This document shows, in pieces, positions 16,515 through 52,100 of a DNA stretch of 64,000 bases. The notes beneath the pieces are model-generated. The model ran no database searches and was not told the origin of the DNA. It saw nothing but the letters and a program-made list of their open reading frames with translations. Each line of letters begins with the position of its first letter. The stretch's first letter is position 1. Source of the DNA: Lingula anatina (Eukaryota; Animalia; Brachiopoda); the NCBI GenBank assembly GCA_051362555.1, contig CM120640.1:2356001-2420000 (forward strand). Reading direction: 5' to 3'. Made by a program: the position numbers and the translations under genes.

Positions 16515-16869
16515 TCAAGACCCTTTCTGACTATTAGAAAGATACGAGCTGCCATCTTTCCATCTCCCGGTAGAACACACTCCCTGTCCCCGCCACCAGT
16601 CGTCCACGTTTTCATACCACGTGTGGTGGTTCTCCGCCTCGTGGACCATGGCACACAGTCTACACCAGAAATACGTGTTGATCGTCCTCATCGTGCCTTT
16701 CCATCGGAAATATTCATTATAAAGATCATCGTTCTTGTCTAGCTCGTGTAAATATTCGGCCAAAGCTTTGGGCGATTCGAAGTCGTCCACGTTGATATAG
16801 GAGTGAGGGGGCGCCACCCTTTTATAATCGTCCGGGTGTGCCCCCATTGTTATGGGAAGAACGTCATGC
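16515..16869 (-). CDS. Fucosyltransferase last coding exon
   Basis: HDVLPITMGAHPDDYKRVAPPHSYINVDDFESPKALAEYL... Confidence 0.93.
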
Positions 16870-23248: not shown

Positions 23249-24768
23249 CGCAGCCCGGCTGTGCTGTGCTACACCAGTGCTGTTATCCTGTTGTCTCCAT
23301 CCTCCTTGTCGCAAATGAAAAGAGAAACATATATTACTAGCTGCACGACAGGAGTGTGTCCAATGCGCATGTACATACCTTATATCGACTGCTTCCTTCG
23401 TCGCGGAGGAGTCCAATCTCTTATTCACCTGGGCTCAATAGCTGCATAATACATAGGCTACTGTTGACATGAATGGTGAAAATCGATCGACTTTGAGATT
23501 CTGCTGAATTTCTACTTACTTAATCTCCTATTATGTCATGAAAACTTGAATCTGCAAGTTTTTAAAAGTGAGGACGCCCAGGTTCCGCTGCAGACGAGAG
23601 GAGGTTGGACACCTGTATGCTTAACGACCGAAGCGTGAAATACATACTCGCAGTGACCTAATTTGGGACCTGTGTTATTTGCATAGAATGTACTGACAAA
23701 TTTCATGCGCCCGGTGTTATCTGAGTAACGTGTAAGGACAGTGATCCATGCGTCACGTTTATGTTGGTAGAACGCCTTTAACGCAAAATCTCAAGTCCAA
23801 AAACCTAGATTAAATCCTTGGACTCGAAGTTCGAGTTGGCTTTTAACTATTTAAATGATTAGTGGCCTATGTGGATGTATACCATGAAGGGATTTCACTG
23901 TGTAGGGCGTGGCCCTCGTTTCAAAAGTGAAACTTAAGTGTCGCTAAGGATTTCGACATGCTTTATAAATTGTAAGCGCTCGAATTCTAGTGATGAAAGA
24001 TTTTAAGATGAATGCGATCACCCGCGGTTTAACTATATAGAATTGTCTCCAAAAACGTTTTACTATATTTCTGAACTGCCTAGTTTGATCTAGTTTCAAC
24101 CGAAGATTTGGTTTATTGCGGTCTGTGGTAAAATGGCAGTCAATAGTGTCTCATGCGGTGAAGTCGTGTCTTAATTATATATGTTATCAGTAGCATGTGA
24201 AGCAGATTGTGAAGCCTATTGTGAAGCGTATATCTTAAAAGACAATATATCACTTAATTTACTGAACTGCTCAATATACTGGCGTTTAGCTTGATCATGA
24301 ATAGTTTAACGTGAAAGCTAGATCCGATTAGCCTTATAACAAAATCACCCTTCCACATAAGCGTTATACAGGATTCACTGGCCAAAATGAATTTTCCTCG
24401 AGGAAAAAAGCAATTTTTTCCTATTTATAATTCATTACAAGACCCGTCTCTGGTCTTTAATTTGACGTTTTACTCTTTTTTAAAATAGATGATTAAGTGC
24501 TAAATCACTGATGGATCATTTGGAACGCCATATCTTCCTGTACATTTCAGTAGGAACTATGAGCGTCATGTGCATTTATTTGTGGGGTTTTATAGTTTTT
24601 AAATGTGGTTTTACAGGCGAATGCTCTAAATCTCCTACATCGATCATGTTTCCAATGAAGAGGTCCTTAAACAGACTGACCAAAAAAGAAAACTCCTCAA
24701 CACCGTCAGAGATAGACGACTGAAGTTCTTGTAACATTCCATCAGAAAAGGGGGATTGGGGAATCTAA

Positions 24769-27900: not shown

Positions 27901-29144
27901 AGATATATTACAATCAAGAATTTCATTTCAGGTCAGCGTCATCCCCAGTAATCTCGCGTTCACTGATATGATAGTGGCGGGGGTTTGGTCGCTGGCAAAT
28001 TGCAGCGGCTGAGATTATCTGCCGATTGTGTTACCTGCCACTACTCAGCTGTGTCTATCTAGGACATGGTATGGAGGTAGTGAGTGAGAGAGAGAGAGAG
28101 AGAGAGAGTTGGAGTTTGGGCAGTAAAGAGGGATGAAGGGACATTCAGTAATACAATAGCAGCAAAAATAAACCTCCAACCTTTCTGAGAATCAGTAAAA
28201 TAGAGAAAATAATTGTCGTACTTAGAGTCAATCCGAAAGAAAGACATAACCTCTGTTTCTTTTTAGTTTACCCAAAGAACTAATCCACTGCGCGCAACAA
28301 TAAGTAACTTGTGAGCAATGCACATATAATATTGGTCAAATATCGAATACCCAAGACAATTATAATCTAATGTGTGCATAACGCATGCGTTGACAGGTTT
28401 CTCAGCTATAAAGTATGCTTTGCAATTACATGGGCAAATAATGTCATATGAATAAACATACTGAAGGATTATGGCACATCTGAGTGGGGAACTTTGTTTC
28501 ATCTATATTATTAAAGTTCAACTTCGCTTTGATTGTCGCTGATAGAAAAATACAGATTTGCTTGCTACAAATAATCTTTTCAGCGTTAAAACAACAATAG
28601 AAAGCGGGGTTTCAGGCTTCGTATACACTAAAAATGAAACCCTTGCATTTTATTAATCACCCTGCTCCAAATCCCAAGGCAAGCTAACAATATTATTAGC
28701 TGCTCGGTTAGTGGGCATAAATTTCCACGTGTTGAAATGAACAAATGGCTGAATCATTTGAAATGGACACACATGTGCCTATAAGCTGGGAGGGCTGCAG
28801 AACCGTAGTTAGGAACAAATAGAACACACACACTGAGAAAGACCGGGCAAATTTCTCAATTTGCTCTCCCTCTTTTTATTCGCTGAAAGTTTTCCGCGAA
28901 CATAGGGGAGAGTTGTAGCCGAGGCAATCTGTCAGCACGCTGCGTTACATTTCAGACATTCTCTCATCCAATTACTGCGTAATTAGGGAATGGATAAATA
29001 AACATACAAGCTTTATGATCTTTGAGGGATTTATAGCAGCAGGGGAACAGGCACGCAGCAAGTTCAGGATCCTTCTTCAGTGATCTGACAGGACTTAGGG
29101 CAGCCTCCACCGGCGGTAGGGAGCGGGACAAGAGCGGCCTAACA

Positions 29145-29172
29145 ATGAACCGATTACTGTATCTTATAACAG
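29145..29172 (+). CDS. SCUBE: SCUBE alternative first exon 1a (start of signal peptide)
   Basis: [15 protein letters not shown], then CAG|gtaggt phase-1 donor. Joins exon 2a to give [21 protein letters not shown]. Confidence 0.65.
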
Positions 29173-32100
29173 GTAGGTACGCAATTCATCATTAACCTTC
29201 GGGTGAACATTTTAACTCACGTTTTCAGCCACTTTGGTGACTTGTATTTAGGAGTTTTGTGGACGGTCGTCGGGGTGGAAAGGTAACACGTTTCGGTAAT
29301 TAAGGTCAGTTTGAGGTTTGATGCAGATTTGATTAGGGCACGTTTCACGTCCAGGAGAGGAGGCAGCTGCGTTTGGAAATTAACTGTGTCTGTACATATG
29401 TAAAAACAGCATAATGCATTGACTGATACACAGGTCAGTCATAGGACCGAAGCCCATGGGGTCCCGTTAGCCGTCCCGTGGAGTATACCCGCTCACTAAT
29501 CCTGGAGTTCTTGTCCGCAAAATACACGACCGCCAATCAGTGTCAATCATTCCGGTTCTTCACAAAATTGTTCGTTAGATGAATTGCTGTATGACATCCG
29601 CTGCAAGTATCGTTACATTTATATTATGATTTATTACAGCATTCCTGTACTGGAACTTACCAACATCCAAAACTTGTGTGAACTTCCAAGTGAAAATAAT
29701 CATTATTTTTTTCATTTGCATTTCAAGTGGAATTTTAGCTCGTTGAAGACAAAATGTGGCTATGATTTCACCAACAATCTAAATGTGTGAAATATTAGAC
29801 GACGTTTGTACAAAGGCCACCGCTCTTGGACGACCTTCGAGACAACAAAAAGTGAACCACTGAAGCTACGCGCACCCACATTCTCAAGTCAGTTTGTTCT
29901 TGTGGAAAGATAAAAAATACCACTTAAAAGTGAATGGTAATAAATATTAATTAAAGTGGGATCATTGTTGAAACAGTATATTTTACTTTAAATAACAGTA
30001 AGTGTCAATACCAATTATGTACCAACATTATGATGTTATACAGACTTAGAAAATTTCACTTTTGTGTAAAGTATCAAAGACGATACAAAGTTGGAACAAG
30101 AGCCATTGTGGAAAACCTTATTTCAAATTACATCACAGCGCATTAACGCCCAGGTAAGAGCTTGTCATTTTAACCTGGAAGAGGGGAAATTGAATGAAAT
30201 ATGTCTACTGTACAGACACTGTTCTCAGGATTCGGATGGGTTCAGACGCAGTGGGATATCTGCCGAGACCAGATAGGGGCGGGGAGTTAGAAAAAAAACG
30301 AACGAAAAAGTGTTACGCCCTGTCACTCGACAGACTGAGAAGAGACGATTTAGTGGACTTCTAGAAGCCAGGAAGGCGTGGCCTTTTTATTTACAGCCAT
30401 TAACGTGTCTGTCTGGCTATTTTTGTCGTCGTCGTCATTTTCAATCCTGTTGCCGTTATATCTATATTGAACCGAAAGACTGTCCATGCTGAAAATGACT
30501 TTGATAGTTCAACGCAGAATATTTCTTAAGAATTGAGAAAAATTGTTATTGGATATAGTAAATTAGGCACCTCTTTTGCTAAACATCGATTCTGAACCCT
30601 AGCTTTATTTAAATCGAGTGATGTATACATGTACAACTCCCGCGGACAATTGTTACGAAGAGGCGGCTAGATAGAAATTGTCAGTCTCTCCTCTATCAGT
30701 AACAACCATTTCTTTACTGAGAATTTTTCTAGGCAGCAGATTTATCGTCTCACTTTTTAAACCTCTCTCTCTCTTTCTCTTTTTTCCCTATTTTCGTGCC
30801 ACTGTGCTTTGACTCGCTCCATTGTCCTTAAAATCATTATTCTTTGAAACAACAGACTAATTACATCTTTTAAACAATTTATTTGTATAGATACAATCTG
30901 TGCACGAAAAAAAGATGAAAAAATTCACAGGTTGCGTTGAAGGGGGTGATTCTGTGACAATGATAATATGGCGCGCTACTTCTTACACTTTTTGACCCCA
31001 CATATGCGGCGAGCGTCAGATGTTTCCTCGCGCTCGTGTCAAGCATGCGTCTCCTGCATCTATAAAAAAAAATCCACCAAGAAAATGACATGTTGCTCTT
31101 TGAGACATTATACGAGACTAAATCTTTGTGGTCCCTCGGTGACGGCAGTTCTAGCTTCTAGGACTGGGCACTGGGCCGTTCCTAGTTGGATATGTTGAAG
31201 TTTATATAAAAACTTTACAGGAGAGCCCACACCAAATGAAAATGATCAAGCAAAATAACACAGACATCTGGTGTAGATGTAACTGTGTTGTGATTGAACT
31301 TATGCTCCAGAATTTTGTATTGTTTTTCGTTTCAACAAATGAAAACACTCTGTCTCTCAATACAGCTACTGATGGCTTTGGTATGCCAGCATTATTGACA
31401 AACGAAAAACAATGTAAAATGAAGTTATGTGCATAAAAACATTTGTCGTCTTCGCCTAAAACCATATATACATCTGTATCATAGCTCTTAAATGTCAAGT
31501 TTCCTAAAATGTAACACTATATAATTAATAACAGTTGTCATGTAGGGCTATCATGAAGATGATTGATGTAATTGTAGGCCCAGTCTATATAGGAACAGGG
31601 ACGTTGATTTAACGGTTGAAAATGACCAGCTGGAAAGTAAAAATATTAAAACTATGATTTCAGGCCTGTATGCAGGGGTAGGGTGGGGTGAGGTGGGGTG
31701 AGGGGTCTTTTGGTGGGAAACGCCCCACACTGAATCAAATTTTGATCCAGGTTTTATGTCATTTCATGGGCCAATAACGGTGTAAAATGTTTTTTTCAGA
31801 TAAAGAATCCCCGTTTGAAATTGCTGGCTACAGGCCCAAATATGATCCATTTTAATGCTATATCAAAGTTGGGAAGTGATAAATTATTTCTCCTATAAAA
31901 TAATTCAAATACTTCTTGCATTTTAGGCTTGGTTCTGGAGTTCACCAACGGCGTCCAAAAACCAATCGTTGAAGTGGATTTACAATTTGGTTTCGTGAAG
32001 GGTTACAGCCCGTACATTACATTCATAGTGCCACCAACACCATCTCGTAATAGAAAGCAATGTACCAGTCAAGCAGTGCTTCGGTTAGATTTTTCTGGGA

Positions 32101-35100
32101 TTTACAAATACGCCAAATTCCACCTTGATTATGGAGACCGTCCTCGTCTTTGGACTCTGGATATTTCCGACTCAAAAACTGGCGACGGGTATGGAGGAGA
32201 CAATGGCACAACCAGTAACATGGCAGAAACTCACATCTTCAATCGCCAACTTCGTCTCTATGGCAACAGTCTCCCAGGTTACAATCACAATACCATTAAT
32301 GGAAACTTACTATTAAAAGTTGTCGACAATATTGTTAAAAAGGGTAGTAAAATTACAATAGAAATCGCTGATGAACGTGTCGATTGGATTGTTGGTAATG
32401 TTAAAGATTTTGTGGAATCTAAATATCTGTACACATTGGACGGCCAGGAGGCGGTATACGGTGAAAAGGACTACTACGTGTACGCAGGTTTTAACAGAGT
32501 GGTGGCGGGGACGTTCAGAAATGGCTCTGGGCTCTGTAGAGTTGGGATCAGTATGCACGAAGGTATATGCTTGATTTACATTTTTTTGATAACGATGTCT
32601 GTTTGTACATCTTACAATTGTCTTTCTACAACATGCCTACCAGTTTTTCTACCTTAAGTATTTAGAACTAAAAGAGCGAAGAGATTGTTTCTTGTGTGAA
32701 GCGTGCGTTCGTGCAGTCTTCAGCTACGCCCGATAGGTAGCGCATCGCTCGTCTGCACTTCTCTTTTCTTTCTGATTGTACTGGAAGAAGCACACAGCAG
32801 AAAGCAATCTTGCTTTTGATGAATGAACCGTGTTTTGAAGTCATATCGCGTTTCGTTAAACTACTCTTTAAATGCGCCTCTTCTAAATCTTTATCCAAAG
32901 ACTTAATGGATCTGAACCGCAAACTGTATCTGGAATGCTGCTTCAGATTAACGTTAATAGCTCCGATAAATAAAAAAAGCGTCTTAAGTCATCTTAATAA
33001 GTATAATTTGTCGGTTCCGATTTTTCCCCGAGCTGATAAATAGATGTTTAAGATCAGGAGATTAATGCAGGAGAACCGATCGGTTACGTGTGTAAACTAC
33101 TTAAAGCACAATCTTAAAACAAACGAGAAGGCATAGCTGGTCAGTGTTATTCCAGAGAGGGACATGAAGGAGATTACGTTTGACACCAAGGTGCACTAGT
33201 TTACGTGATCTGATTGACGTTTGTTTTAATGTTTGCAGATAAACACGGGGGTAATTGAGCAAGCGAGTTCAAAACTGGGGCGTCTGGCTTATGATCGCGT
33301 ATAGACGTTTCTTCCCTCTCCTTTCTGTCTCTTTTGAAAGGTATTTATTGTAATGTGTCTATGGGATAAAATGAAAAACGATCTTGGTATACTACATGCC
33401 GCTCAATCATAGACGCATTGTCAAAAAGGCTTAATCTACTTTCAAGCAGCAAATCAAATGCAAGCAGCGGCTGCTTTGGCTGCGGCATGAGGCCGACGTT
33501 CTCTTTAATTTCCACTCTTGAAAAAATAGGAAAGTGTGTGTTGTACCTTATTGGCCCCTGAGAAGAGGTGAAAGTGGGAGGAGTTTGTTCAGTAAAAGAC
33601 TGTCAGGCAAACAGCGCACTCAAGTTCATCGGGCGTTGAAATAATCAAGACAGAATCCGGATGCAGTTTATGAGCGGGCGAAATTATTACTAGTGAAACT
33701 GAATAGACACGCGGACCATGAAAGAATCTTTGATTTGCCAACTACGGTTAGAAGTAGAACTTTACATACCAACATGATTTGCGGGATCTTACGTGTAGAA
33801 ATCGCTGCTTTTTCCATTTACAAATATTGTCAAGTGCGTGAAGCCGTCGCCTACTGGCGTGCACTCCCCCCGATCATAGCATAGCATAGCATGGTATAAA
33901 GCACGGCTCTGCTCGCTAGACTTGTTGCTCGAGTGACGACGTGAAAGGTGATCAAATGACACGGCTTTTGAAGGAGTGACTCCCTGACTTAACTTTTTAC
34001 TGCTTGTACGCGGAGCTGATGCGGAGCTGTTCTTCTCTTCTTACTCCGAGCCATGAAATCTGTGTATCTGACGCGGGGAGGATATGTCAGTTTCATCCTT
34101 TTACTTTTGTCCTCGGCCTCGGTGGGCAACGCTAAAAGAAGATCGGCAAGGCGAGGTAAGAGAGGCGAAAAATAAAAGTAATTAACAATTAGTACCCCAT
34201 GCTTACGCAGAAAAAAATGTGATATTTTAGAAAAGTCTACATTGCTTTAAAGGGAAAAAAGCAACCCGATGAATGTAAGGGGAAGGTGGGGAAATAATGT
34301 CTGCGCTTTCTGCTGCTGTTTTAGCAAAAAGGATGTGTAACATGTGGCAATATTTAATAACTAGCCTACTTGAATTTGTGAATAGACAAACATGCAGCGT
34401 AGGCTGATGGAATTGATTAATCCTAGGGTAAACCGGGTCATTCTAAACATTTCTAATATTCTGTCTGGCTCTGTATATTTATCTTCCCGAAGAGGAACTA
34501 ATCATTCAAACGTATCCTCTAGATATTAGATTGCTATTTCCATTCTCTGTCTTATCTGGAGAGATTGATGATGTAATTAGCACTGTCTGGTGAAATGGCC
34601 CGCACTGTCTGGAAGGCATAACGAATGCTAATCCCATGTTCATTAATCATATTTCACGTATGTAAAGGGGTAAGTCTACTCAAAGCAGAGACTGACGGAT
34701 AAGTGCATTCCTACGTTTCTTTGCATTTCGGACTACTGTGACTAAATATAGTATAGACTCCCTTAAATACTTTTATAAAATACAGCTTTTTGCAGGTAGG
34801 AATATAGTCATGAATTTTTAGATAGTTAAGCATTTAGACGGAAAAGGGTTTAATATTTGGGGATGGGTATCACTTCTCCGTGGAGAAAATATCTGAAAGA
34901 TGAACCGCTTGCAGACAAGTTGAACAGATGAAGAATTATTGTGTGAAATGAATTGTTATCACATTGATTTGAATAAATATATTGCAATTAACGAGACAAG
35001 CCTCAAATCCCCAATGATATGATAAAGACAATAATGTCCTTGAGATAAGGGAGAAAAACAGAGAGAGGTGAATAGAGAGGGAGGGATAGCCCAAGTATTA

Positions 35101-38100
35101 GATATTGATTGACGTGTGATTAACGTTTGATAGTTTGAACAAATCTGACCCAGGCACATTTTTTTCTTTTTATTAAAGAAGATTTGCTTGATCTCAGACG
35201 GGATTAAAGATATGATTTTTGATAGTTATTGATATGTCGGAGTTATTAAGTGCATCACACCCTTTTCTTCGCCTTTTGACGCACCGCCTCTACACAATTC
35301 GCGACTTGTGAAAAATGACATCCTAACGGGACATTTGTCAGAGTAAATAAGCATGGAAAAGCCAATCGGTGACTGCTTTTCAATAGTCGGTTTGCAAAAG
35401 GGCAAATTTATTCGGTCCGCCTGGCGTCTGCCTTTTAATAATGAACAAAATTATACTTGGAGTATAAAGGCGTGTATTCTACTGTGGTGTTAAAGAAGTC
35501 GGTGTACCTCATAATTTTCAAGCACCTTTCTTGTTGTACGTCAACAGCAAATCACTGCAACCAGATCTTCTCAATGCATTTAATCCTCATTGTTAGTTTG
35601 TGTACAAACACATGAGCTCTTGCAGACGGGGAATTGAACATTTATTTGGCTTTGAAAGGCGAGTGCCAATCTGGCAATTAAACCCGAATCATTGCTATGA
35701 TTGACAACTGTAATATGCTATTACAAGCAGGCTCGGGTATCAGAGTTGGAATTTCATGCGCTCAACACCTTGTCTGCACCCAAAATAACTTTGTCCCCCT
35801 GTGATGAAAGGAAACAATGGGATTTTGCACCCAGGGTCCAGGTATTTGGCAATAATCGCTGATCAAGTGCCTGATAACTAAGGCAAGTATGCGAGGGTCT
35901 TTTTTCGACATTTTTCTACCGTAGACAGAGTTGTCAGGGGATCGGAGGCTCATATAACCGACACGTACGCCCTTGTCATTTGATTCAGGACGTAAGTTGA
36001 TGTATAATATGCCACGGTATCGAATTTTCGATTGTTAGTTACCACTTCTTTCTCTGTCTCTCCCCTCACTCCCCCCACCATTGTTCGCTCATTCTCTCTC
36101 TGTATCCCTCCTTTCCCTCTCTCTCTCTCTCTCTCCCCCTCCCTTCCTCCTCCCCCCCCCCACCCGCTACCTCTCTCCTCCCTTCCCCATCCCTCTTTCA
36201 ATGTAACAGTTTTTGCAATCAAGATTTCATGTCAGCACCCTTGTGGGGATTTCTTATTAAGCCTACACATTGTATAATAGGGGTCTAACAACAATCGAGG
36301 TCTCTTCCCTCACCGTGATTTATATGGTGGTATCTGTAAAATCAATCAGTGACAACACATTAATAATTTAATAGTCGTTTAAACTTTGATTTTAGTGCAT
36401 TAATTAATTTTAGTTTTAGTGAACTGGTCATGTCCGAAAACCAAGTGTGTGATTAATTCACTTTCACGACACTTGAAACTAAATTAGGTAAAAAATGTAG
36501 TTAAAAAAGTCAGACGCCAGTTGTCGTTAGGGATCCAATGGAATCCGACAAGGTGATCTTTTAGTATTTGAATGTAGATTTCTGTCTGGATCCAGCGGTA
36601 CAAGCTTACTTCAGTGGATGATATTGAAAAAAAAATGGACAGAACGTTTAGTTTTTCGTATGAAATGTAGGCCTATTTAAAAAAAAAAAATAATAATAAT
36701 AATAATAAGTTGTTCCTAAGGATGAAGAAAAAAAGTTTTATTGATAATTAGTTATGGAGATATTCTCTTAAGGAACAATAAATTAAATATAAATATTTTA
36801 AACAGGGAATAAATGCTGAGCTTAAATTCCGATATGAAATTTATGTACAAATAATGCGCAGCCTGCCAACGCCCCTCACCCAGAGCTTTCCCACCAAAAA
36901 TGCCTGCCGGCTTCTTCATTTTCCAATCTCCAAACGCGGAAGTGTACCGGACAAGCGCACAAATGTGAAAATGTGTAAATGAAAATCACATTGAAACTCA
37001 AGCTACGACTTTGCTACGACTGTTAGTGACATGTTACTTTCCCTAAATCAGATTGTTCTTACTTCTTTACGTAATATGGGCAAATCATACACATGGGCGT
37101 ATGAAGTGCAAGTCGTGTGTACATGAACACAAATGGTTTGATTGTCATTGGCTCCTGTTTTGGATGCCAATCTGGACTCGTATGTATAATATGGACAGTT
37201 CCCGTCTGGACTCGTATGTATGGAAGACTCACCTCTGAACTTGTATGTATGGGCGACTCACCTCTGAACTCTATGCATGGGCGACTCCCGTCTGGACTCG
37301 TATGTGTGGACTGAGGCGCTGTCAACAAAAGCTTAGTACTCATGCACTGAGCATAGCGCGGACTTAAAAGGGATATCAACGGTTCGTAAGATATCCATAT
37401 TCCACAATAAATACATTGTCAACAACTCATAGAAATATATTAAATTCTGTTTTACCACCAAAAGGGCAGTTACTACAATAATTCTGGAATTTGTGCTTGC
37501 CATTATATCACGTGACCTCCGTAGATGGTTACACTCAATAATAATCTATTAAGAGAATACTACAAAAAAAAAAAAAAAAAAAAAGGAACTAACTTTGAAT
37601 GTGGGAATGGATTCATTTACCATCGGTAAGTATGGGAAAATTGTTCTTTCCCTTTTTTTTGGCCAAAATGAACAGTTGTTATCCCTTTAAAGTTTACCAA
37701 GAATTGTATAACAAGTCCACGTGAGATGTTGTTTTTGTTTAATCAGTTACTTTTGTATTAAATATCAGCTGAAAATAGGGAAATGCTTCAACTTGAATTA
37801 ATTATTTCCATATCCCAGTATAGAAGAACAGTTGTTTCAGAAGTAACTTTGACCAAAATCAAAACTGAAGTGCAATAGGAAAAGAGGAAGAAAAATCAGA
37901 TAAATTATTTCAAAAACTTGTTTACATAAATGTATTTAAAAAAGACCTTATTCAGATTCACTCATCATACTTGATGGATCTGTGGGACATTTCTGCAGGG
38001 GATTTTTACTGAAGTGTGATCATTGGAATCAGTTTAATTGTCTGACACACCTCCCTCAGCAGCTAGGGGTAGTTAACTACCATGTGCTGAACCACTGATT

Positions 38101-39034
38101 GCACTTTAGCAAGAATCTCCCACAGACTTGGACCAACCCAGCTGGTACGATGTTTGAATTTGAATGTGCCTAAGATACAACTAATAGATACCAGTAGATA
38201 TACCAGTACAAAATTCTCTCTCTCTCCCCCTTCCACCCTTCCATCATTTCTCAGGTAGAAAATTTACCTGAGGGCCACTCATTTGTCTGGGCAACTTGTC
38301 ATCTGCTCATATCCTGTACCTTCTCTCCTGTATCCCATCCATCATCTACCTGACATTATATAACTATACAGAAGATATTCTCAGGGCTATTTCTTTATTG
38401 TAAGATCCCATTCCCATAGACACATAGTCTATTGGTCTACGTGGATTGAAAATAGTCTGGGGGGGACCCTTGCTAAATGCAGTCAGCTTCCCTGAAAGAC
38501 ACCCTCTTGTTTCCAACTTACTCATACAATCACCAGCTTTTCTGTATTCTATTTACTACCTGGCGGATGTGTCATTAATTAAGCTGATTGCAGTCAGTAA
38601 GAGTCCTGGTAGAGTTGGGTCGATGTTGTTAATGGGAAAGGGGCCTTAGATTGAATCACTACATATAAAAATTGTCACTGTATTATGTGATTGCAGTTGA
38701 GTACTTGAAAAAATGTATCTGTGAATGCCTGTGTATCTGCAGAAGCCACCATTTTGTGTTTTTGAAATTTGTTGGCCTTTGAGGTCCTATTCCGGATCTG
38801 CCTACCAGTATGGATACAAGTAACCCCAACAACACAGATATGAGATCAGAGATTAATTGCTGTGTCCAAGAGACAATTTCGGAATTGCACTTTGAACTTT
38901 GAAGAAAATGTCTAAATCCCAAGGATCTTGGTTTTGTGTACTCTGTAAATCCTTCTTTTCGGTTTTTCAACCCTTGCTGTTGATACGTAGCTTTATGAAA
39001 GGATTAATTGCCTTAGCTGTTTCTGCCATTTCAA

Positions 39035-39083
<49 letters not shown>

Positions 39084-42000
39084 GTGAATGTGATGAAATG
39101 ATTCTGTGTACAAGGAAGTTTTTTTGTGTAAATTTTAAAACATTTGAAATATAATGTGTATGTTTTAGTTAAAAATATATGCAAATATTAGCCTATTTGC
39201 TTATTAAGATAAGGTCCCATGACTTTCCCTGATGGCAATATTAAGTGGTGAATCTCAATGATGGAAATATTGACATAATTTTGAAGAAAAATAAATATGT
39301 ATCTGAAAATTCATTACCCCATAAGTTTATTTGCAGGAAAGTTGCTGTAAGCCACAGTTTCAATAACATTCTGGCTTGAAACTGTTCCTGAACTCTGAAA
39401 GCAATTGCAATTGAAGATCAGTTGAAAAAAATTTAAACCAAAGAAACATCGGAAAAATGAACCCTTGCATTGACATAGGTTTAAAAAGATTTCTTCAAAG
39501 ATAATTTATTTTGTTTTAGCCTTAGATGAGTGTGAGAATGGAGTCCATAAGTGCCACGCAGATGCTGATTGTATAGATACAAGACGAGCTTACAGGTGTA
39601 AATGTAAAGAGGGGTTCTATGGGAGTGGAAACATTTGTATAGGTAAGCCTATTAACGTCCACTTGTTTCTGTCCGTACTTGATCCTTATTGCTGAGAGTA
39701 CGGAAATTGTCAAAAAGCCTAGAGGAGTCTTCCATAGTATATTATCCAGTCATTTCAAGTGATTGAATTTAATTCCATATGATATATATTCATACTTGCT
39801 CACTTAAAAAAAGAACTACATGGAAAGCTATAAAGTTTTTACAATAATTTAGGATAAAAAGGAGAAAAAATTATTTTAAAGAAACATATGAGAACAAATT
39901 TTGTTGATCTACTAGAGATAAATTTTTTCCCTGGGTTCTTTTTCAGATGTAAATGAATGCCAATATGAAAATGGTGACTGTGTTCATAAATGTACCAATA
40001 CTCATGGTAACTATTCCTGTAGTTGCTTACAAGGATTTGTCTTAGACAGAGATGGACATAATTGTATAGGTAAGACATAGATTGTTGATATGTTAACCTC
40101 CTCTCCTCTGCCTTTACCTTGAGGGTAGGGAACACTTTTTGCATTCCATGTAATTGGCCTTATTTTTCGAGCGTGATTTGAGCCTGATATTCTATGTGAA
40201 ACATGATTTAGGAATTCTTGGTGATTGGTAATTGATCTGTTTTAATCTCGGTTTATTGGTGATTAAGGGGGGGGGGGTATTCTCTACCCTCAACTTTTGC
40301 TCTACCTCTTCTTGGCCACCTACACCATCATATCTTCTGCTCCACCTCTTACTCTCAAGAAGTCTCCCCCCTCCCCCACTTCTTCTTTTCCTCTCCCTGG
40401 ACCATCCTCTTAGGGACCATTCACAATGAATTTTGTCAACCTGGTTAATGCACACTAACTCCACGTGGACTGTTGCTGAATGCAATCAGAATAACAGATC
40501 TCTCTTCTCTGTTGACCCGCCGCTTCCTCTCAAGGAGTCTCACCTTTCCTCCACCTGTTCCTCTCCCTTCCCTAGACCTACCTTTTCCTCCACAAGTCTC
40601 ACCCCCCCCCCCCCCCCGATGCACTTCTTATTCTCAAGAAGTCCAACAGCTTCATAATCACCAGCTCCCCTGTACTAGCTCTACCAGCCCCCACCCCCTG
40701 CACTAGCTCCACCAGCCTCCCACCCCCTGTACTAGCTCCACCATGCCCCCTGCACTAGCTCTACCAGCCCCAACCCCCTGTACTAGCTCTACCAGCCCCC
40801 CACCCCCTGTACTATCTCTACCAGCCCCCCACCCCCTGAACTAGCTCTACCAGCCCCCCACCCCCTATACTAGCTCTACCAGCCCCCCACCCCTGTACTA
40901 GCTCTACCAGCTCTTAACTTTGCTTTCACTCTTCATTAATTTGCTTCCTCATTGACACTATTAGAAACAAAAATATATTCAAATCTTGAAGAAATTTTGT
41001 CAGTTTGTGTTGATATTTTGTTTTCAAATAGGATTTCAATTGTCTGTAATATAACTTAACTTTTCTTTCACTCTTCATTAATTTGCCTCATTGAGACTAT
41101 TAGAAACAAAAATATATTCCAGTCTTGAAGAAATTTTGCCAGTTTCTGTTGATATTTTGTTTTCAAAGTAGTATTTCAATTGTCTGTAATTGAATGTTTA
41201 CTTTTTTAGATAGGAATGAATGTTTTGAGAATAGGGGAGGATGTTCTCAGCAGTGCTTCAACACACTGGGGAGCTATGAATGCCGCTGTAATAATGGATA
41301 TTCTCTTCAAACAGATGGAAAAAGTTGTACAAGAGGAAGAGGTAATTTTTCTTTTTTTCTTTCTTTTCTTTCTTTCTATTTTTTCTTTATTGGAAAGAGT
41401 TGGTGTATATATACAACTGTACATAGTACTATATGGTGTAGAAGAAGTTTTATCGCTATATTTTAGAAATATATGATTGTTTTAACAATTAAAATAGAAC
41501 GAATATTAAAATAGAACGAAGCCTAAAAATTGATACTTGTAGTAGTCGGACTTCAGGTCTTTTTTGAGCAAAACAATTATTTGTTTCTCTCTGAGCTGGG
41601 ACCAAAGTTCATGTGTGAAAACATTTTTTTCCATTTTTTGATACTTTAATGTTTTTCTATTTTTCTACATGATTTATTATTTTTTTCTATCAAAATGATA
41701 TCAAATGTGGTTCTGTGAAGTAAGAGGAGGAAAGGGGCGGTGCATTGATATTGTGGTACAAAAAGTTATGGCTGAAGATGTGAAATAAATGTCTCCGAGT
41801 GTGTTTATCATTAACTCTTGTCAGAGTTGAGTAGTGTCAGAATGGTTGATGTTTATTAGTCTGAAATACGCTTCTTAAGAAACATACTTCAAAATTTGGC
41901 AATTCACACTGTTGGCAGTTGGCCACACAATCACGTGCCTTTTATAGGTTATTTGTTGGGTTTTTTATGGGTGCCTTATGACAAATTATTTGAAAGAATC

Positions 42001-45000
42001 ACAAGATGTGGGAAACAATGTAATAAGACTCTTGTTTTCTTAAATTTCCAGTCTTTATTTTATCTATGTCAGAGAGAACGTGTATATGAAAGCGCAGGCT
42101 GTGGCGTAGTGCATTGATAAAGCAAGTTGTAAATAATTCAAAGCAACCCTATTGGCCATTTGTTCTGCAAATGCTCCCATTAGGATGATCAGTGGTTTTG
42201 TCCTGACAAAGAATGTGGCATGTGGCACAGTAAATAGGCACCAATTGTTTCTTTTAACTGAAATATAGTCACATTACATACGGAGTAACAGAAACGTTCA
42301 TGCAACTTGTCTTGTAGCAGAAAAGGTTGAGTGGAGGAGTTCAAAGGCTGCATGAAAAAAGGGATAGTCACTGATTTGTAAACTCCTGGACATAATGGAT
42401 GTTATTAGGCACACTTGGCTTGGGCCATTTATTTGATGGCAGTGTAAGTTTGGATAATCGTGAAATCAGAAGGAATTGGTAACAGTTAATATTTTGATGT
42501 GATTACATGAGTTTCTGGTTACATTTGCCACAAATTACCATCCAGCTATGTTTGGGCCATTCCAAATTTCAGCTCAGTGTGTGCAGATATAGAAAACAAA
42601 CTGTACAGATGTTTGGTCTTTCTTCTTTCTCCAACAATCATTACACCTGCTGGTCGGCTGGAGCTCTCCTGCTATACTGCTTTATTGTGGTTAACAGTCG
42701 CAATAAACGCCACATTTGATGGAAGTTTGTAATAATTGCATGCATATGGTTGCAATACACTTTCAATATTTGTAAACAGAAAATGCTGGATTTAATTTGA
42801 AATCTGTTATAAAATTATGGTTAACAAAAAAGATAGGATAGTTTGTTGTATACAAATGCACCACTGTTGGGATGATTAGGTATAGCAAATAAAATAAAGT
42901 ACAATAAAATTCAATGAACAGTAAAATATATGATATACAACGTGAGAAATTCTTATAAAGTAGATTACAATATAATACAATAAACATTATAATATGAAAT
43001 AAAATGCAAGAAATTCTAATGAAGTACACTACAAATTAGTACAAGATCACAATTGAATATATTTTAAAACCAGAACTGTTTTGTTAATGTGCTTATTTAG
43101 TTTAGTAGTGTTCTTTAATATACATTTACTAATTTTGCCTTGTTCCTTTTCAGGATGGTGTGAAACATGGAAAGGATGTGCCCATCATTGCAACCCTAGG
43201 AATTATGCCTGCGCCTGTCGCGCTGGCTACGTGCTTCACAATAACGGAAAAGATTGCATAGGTGGGTAAACAGGCAATGAAAAATAAATCTGTCTGTAAA
43301 TAGGGGTGAGAAATATTTTAATTCGGAATTGCACCCTGTGTGTGCTGCCTTTGATCATCTCAATTGTTGTTATTATACAGAGTAAAGTCTAAAAGAGAAG
43401 GAAGTTAGTTTGCAAAATTCTTATTATTATTTTTGAAAAGATGCATTGTTTAAAAAAAACCAAACATTAAATTAAATAGGGAATGACACAATTGAACAAG
43501 CATGAATATATATTAAAATAAAAGAAAGAAAACATCCTGAATAGGAAGCTGTTTTATTAAAGAAATTATGCCTCGACTTATCAGCAGCATTCATTATTAC
43601 TAGACTCAAGAAAAAGAAAGCACTTTTTTCCAGCAGACACATGCTAAGAATTGCACACACCTCCAGACAGCTCTACAAATCATAAGAGCATTACAGGAAC
43701 TGGGCAGGACCCGAGAATTTGTTGAATGACGAAGCTGTCAGCAGTAGCTGTCAAAAAAGGGAAAAGATCACTTTATTGAATTAACCCGGGGGCTGACCTC
43801 TGTCATTTGTGATTATATTGGGACTAAAAGATTGCTTTTTAGATAAAACTACCCCCATTTGTTTGTGAAAAACGTGATGCAGATTCTAAAACTGTTTTGC
43901 CAAAACATGTGTTTTAAAACGGGCATCTGTGTCTTCTCAGGATTATCACTTTTAACAGTTATTAATAGTATCTCCTGCAAAGTTTCAAAGTACCTTCCTA
44001 CTGATGTTAAAATTTTTTTAACAAAAACGTTGTTACACTTGGCTGTTTTGTTGTAAAACTAAGTATACCTCTAAGAGCTTTGTGTTTATTTTGAAAAAAT
44101 ACTCAAAGATGGCAACTGAGGCATTTTTTATTGCAACTTGAAAAACAGGATATTGAAGTACAACAAATTGACATGAATTTGATTTAATCTACTGAATTTT
44201 AAGTGTGTTTTTGCTACTGGAGTCAGCCCCAGAGGATCTTGTGTACATTGTGCAAAATATTTTTTATTGATATTTTTAAGTCCTCAAAACTCTTTATACA
44301 CCATTGCTGGGGGATATGAAATACATTGTCAATCAGGAGTATTTAAATTTTATATTTTAATCCTAATTTGATCTGAAATTCTGATGTAAACTTGGAATTG
44401 TATTTGAAAAAAAGTATTCTGATTTTTTCATTCATCATATGGATCTTCAGATCCTGAAACAACAGCACAAATAAGAAAATACTCCTGGACCCCATTTTAG
44501 ATTTGTAGTGGAAATGTGCACAGAGACAAAGGGGATAACTAATCATTAGTATAAATTTTCTGAAAGTTTTCTGGAAGTCATAATGAAAAACAACTTCAGA
44601 CATAAGTTCCACACTAACAAGGAATACAAATTTACCCGTTGTAAGTGTCAAGCCATTCATAAAAAAATTTAACATTGTTTAATCCACAACAAGTGAAATG
44701 TAGCATAGAAGGTGAAAGTGGCCATGTTGGTTACCAATTTTTTTCCTAATTTCTTCATGCAAGTTGGGACAGGTTTTGTCTGGAATATTTCCAGAGCGGC
44801 TGTTTGCAAGCATTACTCAACAACGTACAAGTGCAGAATCATCATTTCTGGCTAACAAAGTCTGACAATTTACATGAGTAGTGTTCTAATTATAGACTGG
44901 TTAAAGCACATGAAGAGTTTCTGGAGATAGAATAACACAGCTAAGTGGCAGATATGCTTCATCTACATTAAAATTAAACATTAAAATAATAGTGAGGACT

Positions 45001-46090
45001 GGTCTGCCTGGACAGAGGACTGCATTCCCTGAGTGCTTTTCAAGTTTATTTATGTATTTTATTTATTTTAATAAGAACTTATATGTTATTATTTATAGAT
45101 ATTGTGTATCTACCACTAATCATAGTGATAAAGATTTTAGGTAGAAAATTAACAATTTTCTTATATATATTTTTCACACACTGTATGTACTGAGTCAAAT
45201 TTTCTCATATACACTCATGTATCTAACTTTTGAGTTGCTTTGATGTTATTGTATGATTATACTTCAGTAAGCACTATCCACCCAAGAGCTGAAAAGCCAT
45301 GTAAATCATTTTTACCCTTTTATTGAATTTTCTCAGCAACATGTGATATTGGCAATGGTGGGTGTCAGCACAAGTGTAGGAATACCCCCCAGGGTCCAGT
45401 GTGTACCTGTGCTCCCAAGTACATGGCAAGAGCTGATGGAAGGACTTGTATAGGTGGGTCTGGAGTTTGTATCATTACCATGGACAGTTTTAACTCAGGC
45501 AATTGGTAATTATCATTTATGAGGCCTGATTATGAAAATTACTGCCCTTTCCACTTTTGATATATTTTTTTTTTATTTTTCACTTGTTTTCCCCCTGATC
45601 TTGTAATTTTATCCACAAAGCACTGATAAACCCCACAGCACTACCCAAATATTTTTTTGAGGCATTAAAAATATAAAATGTCCAAAGATACGGTTTCTTT
45701 GGCACAGTCTTTTTGATTGAAAACATTTATCCACCCCCTTTATAAGCTTCTTTAAACATTTGTTTTATTGCAAACATGTTAAGCAAAACAAAGAAAAATT
45801 AACTCCCCCCCCCCTCATTTCTTCCCCCTTTACAGTATCCCTGGGTCTGAAAGTGAAATTAATAAAATTGAATTTTATTTATATCATTATGAACTTGTAT
45901 TTTAATCCTTTCTTACCTCTTCCAGCGACGTGTGATGTTAACAATGGCGGTTGTGCTCAGACGTGCAAGGATAGCAATGACGGCCCTCAGTGCAGCTGTC
46001 CTCCTGGCTATATCCTACATCAGGATAAAAAAACATGTTTAGGTAAAGAGTTGAAGTTTAACTTACTATTATTGTCATTAATATCATTAT

Positions 46091-46140
<50 letters not shown>

Positions 46141-49100
46141 CTGGAAGCTTTAACAGGAGTGGATCCAGATCTATTTTCTGACAGTCTTCCAAATTATCTT
46201 TGTTGATCCATTTCTCCATTTTTGACCGTCTTCCGACAGAAAAAATAGATACCCGTCAGTGTAAACTTGAATATCTGACAGTCTTCCTGAACACCCAGAA
46301 GATGGCCTCAATCCAGCCCTGCTTTAAGAAACAAAATAATCCATCATGTTATCCTGTACTGTGTCTCAGTTCTCATGCCTTATTTAGTTAACTGTTTTCA
46401 TAATTTGTATAAAGATATTAGTGTAGAGAGTCTATAAAAATAATTTGTAAACAGTTTAGAGCTCAGTAAAGTATTATTGATATCATTCAGCCATATGTCA
46501 GGCTTATACCTGTAACATAACAATAGAGATGAAAGGTTGCATTTAGCTTATGCAGAGTTGTTTTTAGAATAAGAAAATTCATTTGGAAAAATATTTAGAT
46601 TTTTCAGAGGGGATAAATTCCAAGCCAAAACTTACTGCTTGTAGATCTGTAATGCCTTTGAGTTTGAGTGTAGGCTTGATTTTGCCTAAATTGTTTTTGT
46701 GAGAAAAAAATGAACAGGATTGAACATGCATGTAACCAGATATGTTTTGGTGAAAAAAAATGTTTGTACAAAATAGTACTTTGGATGTTTTGATTTCATT
46801 GGCTGGGAATTAAATTAGCAAGCTGTATAATGAGCAAACAAAACAATTTGACTTTTTGTTTGTCAGGCATGACTTCTTGTTACTATGTCATTAGGGCAGG
46901 GCAACATGTTTCCTTTATTTTTTCTTTTTCTTTTTTTTAAAGTTGAATTTAAACTAGAATTTATTATAGACAGATTTGCTGTAGAAAAAAATTAGTTGAA
47001 TTTTTACACCTCCAATAAGGTAAAGGGTCACTTAATACATGTTTGACTGCCAAAATTCCCCCTTTTAATTCTGACTTGATAAATAACATTTAAATGTGAG
47101 TTGAGGGTCTTACAAAGTGATTTCAGATATCCAGTGTGAAGGAAGGACCAATTTGGAGTTTTATACAAAATTTCAGTTGGAAACTGTAATGCAATTAGTA
47201 TTTCAGACTTTATTATGTAATGTCTAATTGAAACATGGTGTAGCTCTGGAATATTCTCACATATTCCCCCTTTTTGTATATATGTTAATTTGGCGTAAAA
47301 AGAAAAGCACTATAATCATGATATATCAGCATGTTATGATAAAATCAGTGCGGTGTTTGCTACACCTTTCTCTTGTTCCTGTTTATCTGCGGAATGTTGC
47401 AATGTCTGGCATTTGTGTTGGGAGTTTACTTGTTTAATCAGGAGAAGTTGTTTAGCAGTACTTGCTCCTGTCTTTCATTTTTTTCAAGTGATGGGGGCAA
47501 CAAGGTTAGACCGGGAACAGAAGAAAAATGCATGCTGAACTGATTTTTCAATTTCATGCCTGTCAATCAAGTCTTGTTTATTCAATTTGGTAATGCTTTT
47601 TAGGCATTTACTCTAACTGGTTTCCTTTCCATCATTTGTCATTATGGTATCTGAATTGAAATTTTTCTCCCTTCTCTCTGGAATTATCTCAATCTTTCAA
47701 ATTAAAAAAAATTGAATATGATGACACATTTTTTGTATTTGATAATACATTCTTACTGTCATGTCAAATGTATTTGCATGTTTCTTTGTGAAAAAAAAAA
47801 AGGTTTCAAAGTTTAAAACTTATATGAAATTTCAATGTCATTTTAAGAATTATGAAAAACCTTGCATTTATGAGTGAAAAGATATTTTAGGCAAAGTGGA
47901 GACTGCAGTTAAAATTCAGTTATTCACACAGACAGTTCCTATGATACAATTGCAGGCCTGTTTTGGGAAGGGGGGGTTGAAATTAAGTGACATTTTGTCC
48001 AGGAAAAGCTCACTACTGAATCATTTGATCTTGGTTTTATGTCATAATAGTAAAAAGGTCCACTTTTCAGAAAAAGACTCCCCCTCTTTTGAAATTGCTG
48101 GCTGAAAACATGAGTCGGAAAGGAATTCTAATGGTAGTAATTGCTATGAATGACTTACGTATTTCTCATTTTCAGATGTAAATGAGTGTAACATCAATAA
48201 TGGCGGATGCAGCCATGAATGTGAAAATACAGATGGAAGTTATGAGTGTATTTGTCCAAAGGGTTACAAGGTGCACGCAAATGAAAAAATTTGTCAAGGT
48301 AAGTGAGGGAAAAGGATCTTTCACCAGAAAATAATTTTCTTTAATTAACTCCTGGCAGAGCCACTTGTCTGGCTGGCGTTGTAATAAGGAAAAGGTTTGG
48401 TGTTGACGGGCTCATGTCTATGATTTTGTATATATGTTCTTATTATTGTGGTAGTAGCACCTATTTAATGTAAAATATGTTTATAAACAGGAAACAGGTT
48501 TTGTAGTACATTTACCAAAAAGTAATGATATACGGGGTTCTTGCATGTAGAACAGTATGCTCCACGTCCTATGCATTATTGTTCAAGATGTTTATATGCG
48601 CCACCTGTTACTGTTTCAGCTTGTGTTATATGTGACTTGGAACAGAGAGAAAACATGTTTTATTACATCTATGGATTTCTGTCACCATTTGATTCACATT
48701 TACAGTCCACCAAATTTTAAACAAATTACATGTGAAATATCAAGTATTGACCTTGATGAACTCTGGTTCAGGTTCACTTGCTACAGATTGGAGCAGTTAC
48801 AGCAACAAACACTTGTGCTCCTCAGTAACTAAATTTGTCCAAACTGTCAAAGAGAATTGACAGAAAATGGTTGATAAGTTAATAGTTTCTACAGAAACTG
48901 ATCTTTGATCTCTCCTGCTGAAATAGAAACCGCTCTTAACAGCCATTATAAGTTTTAATTAGTCTGCACTTCTGTCGGTAACACTATCAAGTGTATGTTC
49001 TGGATCATCTTGGACCCCTTGATAAACCAGAAATAGACAGACTTTATTTGAATGCATTTAATTGGGTTGTTGTAACTAATTTAATTTTTTGACAGGTGAT

Positions 49101-52100
49101 GGCAAAATTAAGTGGGCCCTTTATACTAGAGGAAATTAAAATCTTCTGGAGAATTTGTGTAACACACAACAATTTCTTTTTGCCTTTGGTAGTGTTTAAT
49201 TAAATTTGAACCAGTTTCGTGTGACCAGATTGTGAAATGCACCGTTGGCTTTTTCCCAAACCACAAGTTAATTCATTGGTTATGTACCGAGAGGAGTGCT
49301 GCTCAAAACTGTTGGCTCTTGTGAAAATCTTTAGGAGAAGAATTTTGTTTTTAAAAAATGAATGGCTGGAACCCATGCCAGACCAACAAAGTTTGAGCAC
49401 ACTGATATGTGGTTGTCTATCTGTCTGTTTATCTGCCTGTCTGCCCATTCGTTATTCTTTTTGTGGAAGAAATCTTGCATCATCATCTCCTAGCTTCTAA
49501 GTTTATTTAGATGCACATTCAGTTCAAAGTGTTCACACAGGAAGAACTCAGTATTGAGTTCTGCAGCTGGGGATTTTATCAATTTATTTATTTATTTATT
49601 TATTTATTTTTTGTTAAATTTGAGGGTCTTGGTTAAGTTGGCAAACAGTTCAGCTTGACCTTGTTTAAGACACAGAAAAAATATCTATACTTATCTGTTT
49701 CAAGAAAGAGTTTTGCTCGATTTTTCAAACATTTTGCAATGACGTAATGGTTATGCATCTGATATATTGTTTGTGTCTATCAGTCAAAATATTTTCATGA
49801 AAACTATATCCCGTCTCCGTTGATTTCCTGTCAGACCAGTAGGTGTGGTGATTTGGAAGGGTTGTCATCGCAGTTACAGTCCTTTACATGTTCTTTATTT
49901 TATAATTTTGAGAATTAAAAAAATTTCTAGTAATATTTTACTGGCTTTTGTCGACAGGTGTGTTTCTACATGATTGTTTTATTTATTTATTTATTTATTT
50001 ATTAGAAATACAAGAACTAGACAGTGCTCAAAACAGGACTCATGATGTTTTTATTTTGCTTACGGTTGATTTATCACTAGCAATTGCAGATTGTCACAGG
50101 TATTCTTCATGGCCCCAAAAATTACCTGTAGAAAGTCTTCTGTGGTATTCAAGTTGATAGAATAGAAGCATTCTTTACTTAATATTTCTATCCACCATCT
50201 ATGGACCTTGGTCATATAAATGGTGATTTTTTATTTTTGGGTATACCGGAATCTGACACTGAAGGAACAGGACAGATACGTAAAAAATAATTCTGTTCTA
50301 TAGTGCCAGATAGAGATCACCAAAAGCCACTTTCATGGTATTTAAGTTGTTTTTGAAAGTTTTTTGTTGAAAAATACAAGACTGTCTTGAAAATATGGCT
50401 TTGTTTGTTGTAGATGTGGATGAGTGCGCTCTGAATACTACATGTGACCACACCTGTATCAATACCCCGGGGAGTTACGTCTGCTCCTGTCACAGAGGGT
50501 ATGAAAAGTATGGTGTCAGCCACTGCGGAGGTAAGGTTCACTGAGGTGAATAGAACAAATGAAATTGGGGGAGTGGAAATCAATGTGCTCTTTGTTTTAT
50601 TACCCAGCTTAATAAGTTACCTTAAAATACGACTATTTGCCATTTATATTCACAAGCACTAGCTCATGGATAACAATTAAGCTACTTTGAAGTGTCAATT
50701 GTTAGACCTATCAATTTGAAAATTAATTTGACTGAATTAAAGAACAATATGGCAAACAAGCAGAGAACTAGAATTGCAAAGTAAACTGTCTAACACAATT
50801 CTATCCATCTTTGAAAATTATTGAAAAACTCACTGTTTAATTTTCAGCATATATTTTTACAATGACATTTATTTATTTATTTATTTATTTATTTATTTGT
50901 ATAGATATCAATGAATGTTCCATCAATAATGGCGGCTGTGATCATGGGTGCCGTAACACCATGGGAAGCTTTGAATGTTACTGCCACTCTGGTCATAAGC
51001 TCCACCCCAACAAGAAAGATTGTGTAGGTATGGTATCCAAGACAAAAAGGTATTGTGATGATCAGGCACAGTGTGCTGCAACATATTGAAAATAGTGATT
51101 TTGGGATACAGTAGCAACTTTATAGCTCAGTAAATGTCTCTGAAATGATATAATAATATGTTAAGTGTAGCTACATAGCATAGTACTACATAGACCAAAA
51201 TATTTTTTGTCATTTTAGTTTTTTACACATTTAACATAATTTATTCTTCATGTATATTTTTATGTCCCTATTTTTATACAGAAAAAAGATTTTATCCAGT
51301 GTCCACAGTTTTACTTTTCTTTTCACAAACCTCATTGATCTTTACAGTTTTGGACCGTTGCACCCCTCTGAAGCCTCCAGCTAAGGCTTTACTCTCCTGT
51401 ACCCAGCAGGGTAATGATGAGGTGTGTGTCCTTAGTTGCCATAGTAACGCACATTTCACAGCCTCTGATGACCAGCAGTATACGTACACCTGTGGGCTGA
51501 GCACTCAGTTCCAGTGGACACACGAAAAAAATAACCAGACGTTACCCTCTTGTTCTGGTAAGGACGGATCTATCTTTATTATTTAATCTATTTTATCCAC
51601 ATAACCCTCTGTATATGTATGTTTTTTATGGTTTATCCTCGGTCAATTTAATTTAACTCCTGCTTTTGCAGAATGCTACAGTTTCTTACAGTGTTGTTTG
51701 CACACTTGTTCTTGCTATTAATTCATAGTTGCACCAACTTTTGACTGAGATTGATATCAATTTCTTGGAAGAGGACAAATACACACAGCGGGATGAAAAC
51801 CACTTTAAATTTGAAGTTATTTTTAATGTATCATGGTAATATGTTACAGATGTTTAAAAAAATTTATTTGTTTCTCATGCTTTCAGAGGCAGTCACCTTG
51901 CCCAGTTTTAAGAAGAGGGCCAAATTTTTTTTCAAGACTGACAAATGCAAATTGAGAAAACGTGTCAGAAGAAATGGTGCTGCAAACGAGGCTCAAGGTG
52001 AGAAATCGACAAAAGAAAGAAATAATATTCTTTAAGGCCCCATTCAGAATAGGGGACTAGCTAGTCCAAGGGTCAAATATGGCCGACCCACTTGAATTCT

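Follow-up and report, generated by a model that had tools for sequence, protein, structure and literature searches.

Two alternative first exons in the SCUBE gene of the brachiopod Lingula anatina specify proteins with and without a conserved, unnamed N-terminal domain

We identified in the brachiopod Lingula anatina a SCUBE gene in which two 5'-terminal exons are spliced to one common exon encoding the first EGF-like repeat (EGF1). Use of the upstream first exon would give a long secreted form that opens with an extra domain of about 200 amino acids (aa), and use of the downstream first exon a short form without this domain. The gene lies on the forward strand of a stretch of 64,000 nucleotides (nt) (assembly GCA_051362555.1, contig CM120640.1, positions 2,356,001 to 2,420,000), referred to here as the window, and all positions below are counted within it. 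SCUBE proteins help to spread developmental signals in vertebrates, and alternative first exons are common among genes. A previous reading of the window from its letters alone (the sequence-only reading) had proposed two signal-peptide starts, both ending in phase 1 and both compatible with the EGF1 exon; the leaders found here match those it gave, and the exon borders were confirmed. By pointing to "other molluscs" for comparison it had placed the source animal in the wrong phylum.

The window gene was recognized as Lingula SCUBE by the translation of exon 2a, which is 100% identical to RefSeq protein XP_013414319, and it extends from approximately 28.75 kb to the stop codon at 60033-60035 (Table 1). 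GT and AG were found at all exon borders examined. The coding part of exon 1a (29145-29172, 28 nt, donor GTAGGT) and that of exon 1b (103 nt, donor GTAAGA) both finish in phase 1, and each leader combines a hydrophobic core (Kyte-Doolittle means of 2.39 and 2.79 for the best 9 residues) with small residues at the likely cut site. Downstream of the joint the protein consists of nine EGF-like repeats (eight recognized by pattern and the ninth by the exon map, at residues 353-395 of P0020, in agreement with Pfam EGF families), a spacer, three cysteine-rich repeats detected by Pfam as Ephrin_rec_like stretches, a CUB domain (802-911 of P0020) and a tail, and the CUB-tail region is 61-64% identical to that of vertebrate SCUBEs. 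The form made from exon 1b has the vertebrate-like architecture that was predicted for it. RefSeq already models both proteins (XP_013414318-XP_013414321): isoforms X1-X3 (1177, 1176, and 1174 aa) open with exons 1a and 2a and isoform X4 (990 aa) opens with exon 1b, and neither a name nor a family is given to the N-terminal 200 aa in these automatic models. The 956 aa downstream of the joint are identical in isoforms X1 and X4, and EGF1 starts at residue 39 in the short form compared to residue 226 in the long form. The gene has two duplicated internal exons, and use of the shorter one gives the lengths of 1174 and 987 aa proposed earlier. These internal exons, at the end of the spacer [54163-54266 (104 nt) and 54349-54461 (113 nt), + strand], are similar and in the same phase and look like a duplicated, mutually exclusive pair; RefSeq isoform X3 takes the first and isoforms X1 and X4 the second, and the mapped reads do not cover either exon.

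RNA reads support both starts. Six of nine Lingula RNA runs were mapped (X2, X3, and X9 were left out), and approximately 6% of runs X1 and X4-X6 and 25% of runs X7 and X8 was read. In a first read mapping both long-form joints fell under the listing threshold. The joint between exons 1a and 2a (29172>31927) was found in 3 reads of run X6 and in none of runs X4 and X5, and the joint between exon 2a and the EGF1 exon (32562>39520) in 12 reads (2, 2, and 8 in runs X4, X5, and X6), all as GT..AG skips. The short-form joint (34155>39520) was found in 38 reads from five of the six runs (19, 8, and 6 in runs X4, X5, and X6, and 2 and 3 in runs X7 and X8); it was absent from run X1, where the SCUBE exons had no depth at all. 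All three joints named by the sequence-only reading are thus present in the RNA. Over the SCUBE exons the library reads of runs X4-X6 were confined to one strand. The start of exon 1a was placed from RNA depth in 28600-29359 (runs X4-X6), with about 17 bases covered before 28772 in run X4.

To be an internal exon of the long transcript, exon 1b would have to be joined to exon 2a, and this possibility was rejected as no such joint was listed. In runs X4-X6, all of which express exon 2a, no RNA depth was recorded between exons 2a and 1b at 32780-33159; no joint into exon 1b is among those listed from the mapped runs; and in runs X7 and X8 the short-form joint is present while depth is zero over exon 1a and over 32164-32587 of exon 2a. 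Because of these three observations we conclude that exon 1b behaves as a first exon. The proportion of long-form (32562>39520) to short-form joints varied by run, from 2:19 in run X4 and 2:8 in run X5 to 8:6 in run X6 (Fisher test of X4 vs. X6, p = 0.0056; chi-square test over the three runs, p = 0.0066). Since the counts are small, the tissues of the runs are unknown and the test is post hoc, regulated use of the two starts is likely but not proven.

Exon 1b had also been credited with its own TATA box. The motif (TATAAAG, at 33895) is indeed present, but the same pattern matches 7 times in 5.8 kb, and RNA depth continues upstream of it. Depth in 33540-33919 was 8.95, 4.01, and 1.29 in runs X4-X6, which is 24-54% of that in the coding bin, and depth in 33160-33539 was 0.95, in run X4 only. 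In runs X7 and X8 the depth at 33810 (9 and 7 reads) matches that at 34070 (7 and 6 reads), with 6-9 reads covering 33810-33877. In run X4 the depth was 2-5 at 33810-33877 vs. 20 at 34070, a drop that fits a second start just 3' of the motif. The motif therefore accounts for no more than one start of exon 1b, and part of the exon 1b RNA begins upstream; as the sole start it was rejected. Counted from 33300 the 5' region contains 13 upstream ATGs and counted from 33925 it contains 2, one upstream ATG (34019) opening a 38-codon frame that overlaps the main start of exon 1b. The two possible starts of exon 1b could differ in translation.

The long and short pair is found well beyond brachiopods. 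A search with exon 2a for longer proteins gave 18 matches, of which 15 carry the domain, EGF repeats and a CUB domain in one chain, and identity over the domain outside Lingula is 53-63%, from brachiopod to starfish and amphioxus. Long and short models, each with its own hydrophobic leader, were present in all ten clusters looked up, which cover a brachiopod (Lingula), an annelid (Owenia), molluscs (Haliotis, Mytilus, Dreissena), a hemichordate (Ptychodera), amphioxus (Branchiostoma) and echinoderms (Patiria, Asterias, Anneissia). The unique N-termini measure 221-264 residues in the long and 21-36 residues in the short models. One model of the Mytilus cluster runs from the domain through the short leader to EGF1 in series and a scallop-like model has a leader-like stretch after the domain, which suggests that bivalves share the exon order of Lingula. 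In Lingula, intron 1 splits the long-form signal peptide (29145-29172 and 31927-31953); the sequence of the Mytilus and Dreissena models changes there as well, and three different starts precede exon 2a in Dreissena.

SCUBE-type proteins that begin with the domain are also present in the corals Porites, Oculina, and Pocillopora, with EGF and cysteine-rich repeats in smaller number, and in Gryllus, Ischnura, and Timema, insects whose copies are strongly diverged (approximately 30% identity). The cricket, damselfly and stick insect proteins (P0218, P0223, P0158) are partly misnamed as vitellogenin receptor, cubilin or Notch. No short form was present among the few coral and cricket records listed. 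The best 120 of 1271 CUB-tail matches included 91 vertebrate-named SCUBEs, and a profile search found the domain in none of them; EGF1 lies inside the first 75 residues in all 72 of the vertebrate-named SCUBEs in which it was located. A FastTree tree of 162 domain copies was rooted at its midpoint, redundant isoforms and matches of fewer than 140 profile positions (including Ischnura) being excluded and 101 rows remaining unlabelled. In this tree a branch with support 97 separates off the 27 labelled SCUBE domains, which mostly cluster by phylum; stand-alone animal-side proteins adjoin them and all 31 bacterial-labelled copies are opposite (support 98). As the tree is midpoint-rooted, we claim no direction of transfer between bacteria and animals. 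Stand-alone or tandem members on the animal side (P0273, P0186, P0137, P0149, P0151, P0199, P0211, P0219, P0221, P0222, P0239, P0240), of which the named ones are from Stylophora and Rotaria and some unnamed ones have Gly-Pro-Pro repeats, are sister to the SCUBE copies.

The sequence-only reading took the short form as canonical and the long form as an addition. Because the domain is present in coral and insect SCUBE-type proteins, as well as in spiralians and invertebrate deuterostomes, and absent from the vertebrate-named set, the true polarity is likely the opposite, with an ancestral long form and a derived short form. Judged from these protein comparisons, the common ancestor of corals and bilaterians likely had the long form already, and that of protostomes and deuterostomes the two-start layout; vertebrates have likely lost exons 1a and 2a.

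The extra domain appears to be a family of its own. As a single domain it gave no Pfam match at E ≤ 10, no NCBIfam match and no match to PDB sequences, and a 79-sequence profile searched against PDB returned only T-cell receptor chains (E 0.08-0.16), which we take as chance. The ESM Atlas had no usable match for the Lingula domain and gave only PEP-CTERM-driven leads for a bacterial member. At E ≤ 0.001 the domain is matched by 535 representative proteins, and the named bacterial carriers include the cyanobacteria Microcoleus and Dolichospermum and a Thiotrichaceae bacterium. In bacteria the domain follows a signal peptide as the sole domain, occurs in tandem, or is attached to M4, S8, or C1 peptidases and to proteins with FG-GAP, Calx-beta, RTX, SH3 or PEP-CTERM parts, some of which are adhesin-like. 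This placement on secreted proteins, sometimes in tandem, is that of accessory binding modules.

Conservation was determined from 31 SCUBE and 101 bacterial-side domains, with residues numbered after P0002. Seven polar residues (D91, S92, D101, E110, N199, R200, R207) are conserved from bacteria to most SCUBEs. Five of these (D91, E110, N199, R200, R207) are retained in 84-100% of the SCUBE and 92-100% of the bacterial-side domains, a pattern that suits a ligand or metal site, and D91, D101, and E110 are 99-100% conserved on the bacterial side. C55, C213, Q117, R119, G135, and L138 are conserved in animals only and are missing from the bacterial side; C55 and C213 may form a disulfide.

Folding of the Lingula domain from the alignment of 79 sequences gave a confident all-beta model (pLDDT 96.9, pTM 0.92); a fold of the single sequence (pLDDT 29.7) was not used. 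The top rows of a Foldseek search were ERGIC-53 and legume lectins (E 1.2e-5, TM approximately 0.5). VIA-align over range 1-202 gave best Z scores of 9.3 (rmsd 3.1, 143 aligned) and 9.9 (rmsd 2.9, 138 aligned), with tied matches to GH32 and GH43 sandwiches, a glycan-binding pilin domain, GH16, alginate lyases, galectins and laminin-G domains. Most of these rows are beta-sandwiches that bind or process sugars. The domain is predicted to adopt a concanavalin-A-like fold, a two-sheet antiparallel beta-sandwich, which no standout match assigns to a family. The all-beta sandwich across the whole domain is shared with ERGIC-53, VIP36, legume lectins, galectins, GH16, the C-terminal sandwiches of GH32 and GH43, and laminin-G; by sequence the Lingula domain has no Pfam or PDB profile match, and none of these families stands out. 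In particular, L-type lectins hold the top Foldseek rows but are tied with other families in VIA-align.

From the modelled fold we lean slightly towards glycan binding by the extra domain. A lectin-fold domain would bind glycan and so anchor the long form on certain surfaces or matrix. Because the two forms have the same EGF, spacer, cysteine-rich and CUB parts, the choice of start would alter the site of retention and the range of SCUBE, and not which ligand is bound. The vertebrate CUB and cysteine-rich parts bind Hedgehog and BMP, according to the part of the review available (PMC10214685), and by analogy a Hedgehog or BMP role may be supposed for SCUBE in Lingula. Start choice was earlier described as switching a binding module on or off in a morphogen carrier; the alternative N-termini are seen in the RNA, binding is a prediction at the level of the fold, and the supposed carrier role is taken over from vertebrates. 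A wider and more doubtful scenario is that the ancestral animal SCUBE carried a glycan-binding or glycan-cutting domain shared with bacteria, that bilaterians have toggled Hedgehog or BMP cargo between a tethered and a travelling state by promoter for more than 550 million years, and that vertebrate SCUBE1-3 descend from the short promoter alone, loss of the tether being a step to long-range Hedgehog release.

Several observations weigh against parts of this interpretation. The read counts are small and the test of the ratios was chosen after they had been seen. The isoform pairs outside Lingula are database models, known from proteins and not from genomic layout, and the vertebrate set (91 of 1271 matches) has no mammal-, cyclostome- or tunicate-named row, with 72 of the 91 including EGF1. 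Spiralian and deuterostome short leaders are without evident likeness, so that the internal start could have arisen twice. Conservation of D101 falls to 77% among SCUBE domains, and most of the arthropod-side set lacks it. Structural similarity is middling, with no match clear of the others (Z 8-9.9, rmsd 2.7-5, identity <13% in most cases), and laminin-G domains, which are not lectins, and enzymes are among the matches. Finally, no invertebrate SCUBE is known to bind Hedgehog or BMP, and PMC9695228, in the part available, draws no conclusion on it.

The strongest alternative to glycan binding, although we consider it fairly unlikely, is that the domain is a laminin-G-like module that binds protein and not sugar, through which the long form would attach to a receptor, a matrix protein or a ligand. 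The fold searches also list SHBG, agrin, Gas6, the thrombospondin C-terminus and NEL, and the animal-only residues would suit this reading; however, most of the top fold rows are sugar-related, and the most conserved polar residues are common to bacteria, which have no animal partner proteins. It is improbable that the two starts serve separate expression only, with the domain as a structural part or an aid to folding or secretion and both proteins alike outside the cell. Vertebrates manage without the domain and the insect-side copies have diverged, but the identity of the domain between brachiopod and starfish or amphioxus, together with the conserved polar residues, implies a selected surface. 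About as improbable is a catalytic domain of the same fold, acting as a glycoside hydrolase or polysaccharide lyase, with which the long form would cut back heparan sulfate or other glycans at the place where it settles. In favour of this, the tied matches include GH16 glucanases and PL7/PL14 alginate lyases (Z 7.5-9.6), the three acidic residues are nearly invariant on the bacterial side, and many bacterial proteins consist of a signal peptide and the domain alone. Against it, no catalytic motif of a family was matched by sequence, the acidic residues are less well kept in SCUBEs of corals and of the arthropod side, and tandem or accessory placement on unrelated enzymes suits a binding module. 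That exon 2a is a separate gene or exon 1b noise, as some ab initio models with the domain and without EGFs (P0091, P0016, P0007) and the existence of stand-alone animal family members might suggest, is contradicted by the 12 reads that join 32562 to 39520, the 38 reads that join 34155 to 39520 and the 15 of 18 single-chain proteins, and was rejected as practically impossible.

Glycan binding by the extra domain might have a counterpart in the short form. A basic stretch, KRRSARR (34128-34155, + strand), remains on the Lingula short form past the likely signal cut. Spiralian short leaders end basic, with 2-7 K/R in 14 residues in 12 rows (one of them unnamed, P0288, and one without the first EGF), and 10 of the 11 spiralian-named short forms have 3-7 K/R before EGF1. 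The count is 0-2 in five invertebrate deuterostome short forms and 0-1 in 36 of 38 vertebrate rows. A general furin site was rejected, as RXXR occurs in Lingula, Owenia, and Dreissena and not in Haliotis or Mytilus. Basic residues of the Scube2 spacer bind heparan sulfate, as stated in the available part of PMC4873810, and the basic cluster of spiralian short forms, at the same position as the domain in the long form, might bind heparan sulfate instead.

Mammalian SCUBEs are described in the available part of the 2023 review as proteins of approximately 1000 aa with a five-part architecture, for which no homologues had been identified in invertebrates such as fly and worm, and the same text makes no mention of such an N-terminal domain (PMC10214685). 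As far as these sources go, the Lingula short form matches vertebrate SCUBE1, SCUBE2, and SCUBE3 in having a signal peptide on its own exon, nine EGF repeats, spacer, three cysteine-rich repeats, CUB and tail in approximately 1000 aa. Lingula differs in having one gene instead of three and a second, upstream start that adds 200 aa before EGF1. For the annelid genes Pdum-Scube and Pele-Scube, each single and likewise encoding nine EGF repeats, three cysteine-rich repeats and one CUB domain, the domain structure is called the same as in mouse, and neither the extra domain nor a second start is mentioned in the part available (PMC9695228, 2022; Figure S3 caption). A Lingula BMP paper (PMC13121700) contains the word 'scube' neither in its main text nor in three supplementary files. 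Our literature search, which had most subscription journals, InterPro, CDD, and SMART outside its range, found no description of an N-terminal domain or a second promoter in an invertebrate SCUBE. The RefSeq models of Lingula, and matching isoform sets in other invertebrates, predict exactly both N-termini. Already known are thus both proteins as automatic RefSeq models, and new is a conserved two-form variant of a known family with an unnamed domain. SCUBE has been treated as a largely vertebrate helper of Hedgehog release with a fixed architecture; here it is a two-form system across spiralians and invertebrate deuterostomes, with a well-conserved domain that vertebrates have apparently dropped. 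The domain defines a family of at least 535 representative proteins in animals and bacteria, with a confident model, and the long and short forms offer a direct experimental handle on the evolution of morphogen range.

Table 1. Positions in the window of the exons and other features of the Lingula SCUBE gene.
Feature	Positions	Strand	Description or evidence
Exon 1a	28755..29172	+	5' UTR with approximate start, then codons 1-9 of the long-form signal peptide from the ATG at 29145
Exon 2a	31927..32562	+	636 nt, phase 1 to phase 1 (symmetric); remainder of signal peptide and whole extra domain; borders TTTTAG / GTATAT
Extra domain of ~200 aa, unnamed	31956..32561	+	Predicted concanavalin-A-like beta-sandwich; conserved residues
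Exon 1b 5' region, transcribed	33300..34052	+	Upstream limit approximate; RNA depth
TATA-like motif TATAAAG	33895..33901	+	158 nt before the exon 1b ATG
Exon 1b coding part	34053..34155	+	Short-form signal peptide, then basic stretch KRRSARR; RefSeq XP_013414321
EGF1 exon, first shared	39520..39642	+	Joint reads, exon map
Other shared exons	39947..60035	+	EGF2-9, spacer, three cysteine-rich repeats, CUB, tail; tblastn exon map, Pfam

Three further features of the window were recorded. A glycosyltransferase family 10 (fucosyltransferase) gene (22178-23434, - strand), with a further exon near 16515-17030 (- strand), lies head to head with SCUBE, approximately 5 kb upstream. Downstream of the SCUBE stop there is a tandem array (61745-63818) of about 14 copies of a 146-bp unit. 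Intronic repeat pieces at 37340-37720, 31740-31850, and 38480-38860 attracted many reads from both strands with loose ends, and are likely dispersed inverted-repeat elements that are transcribed elsewhere.

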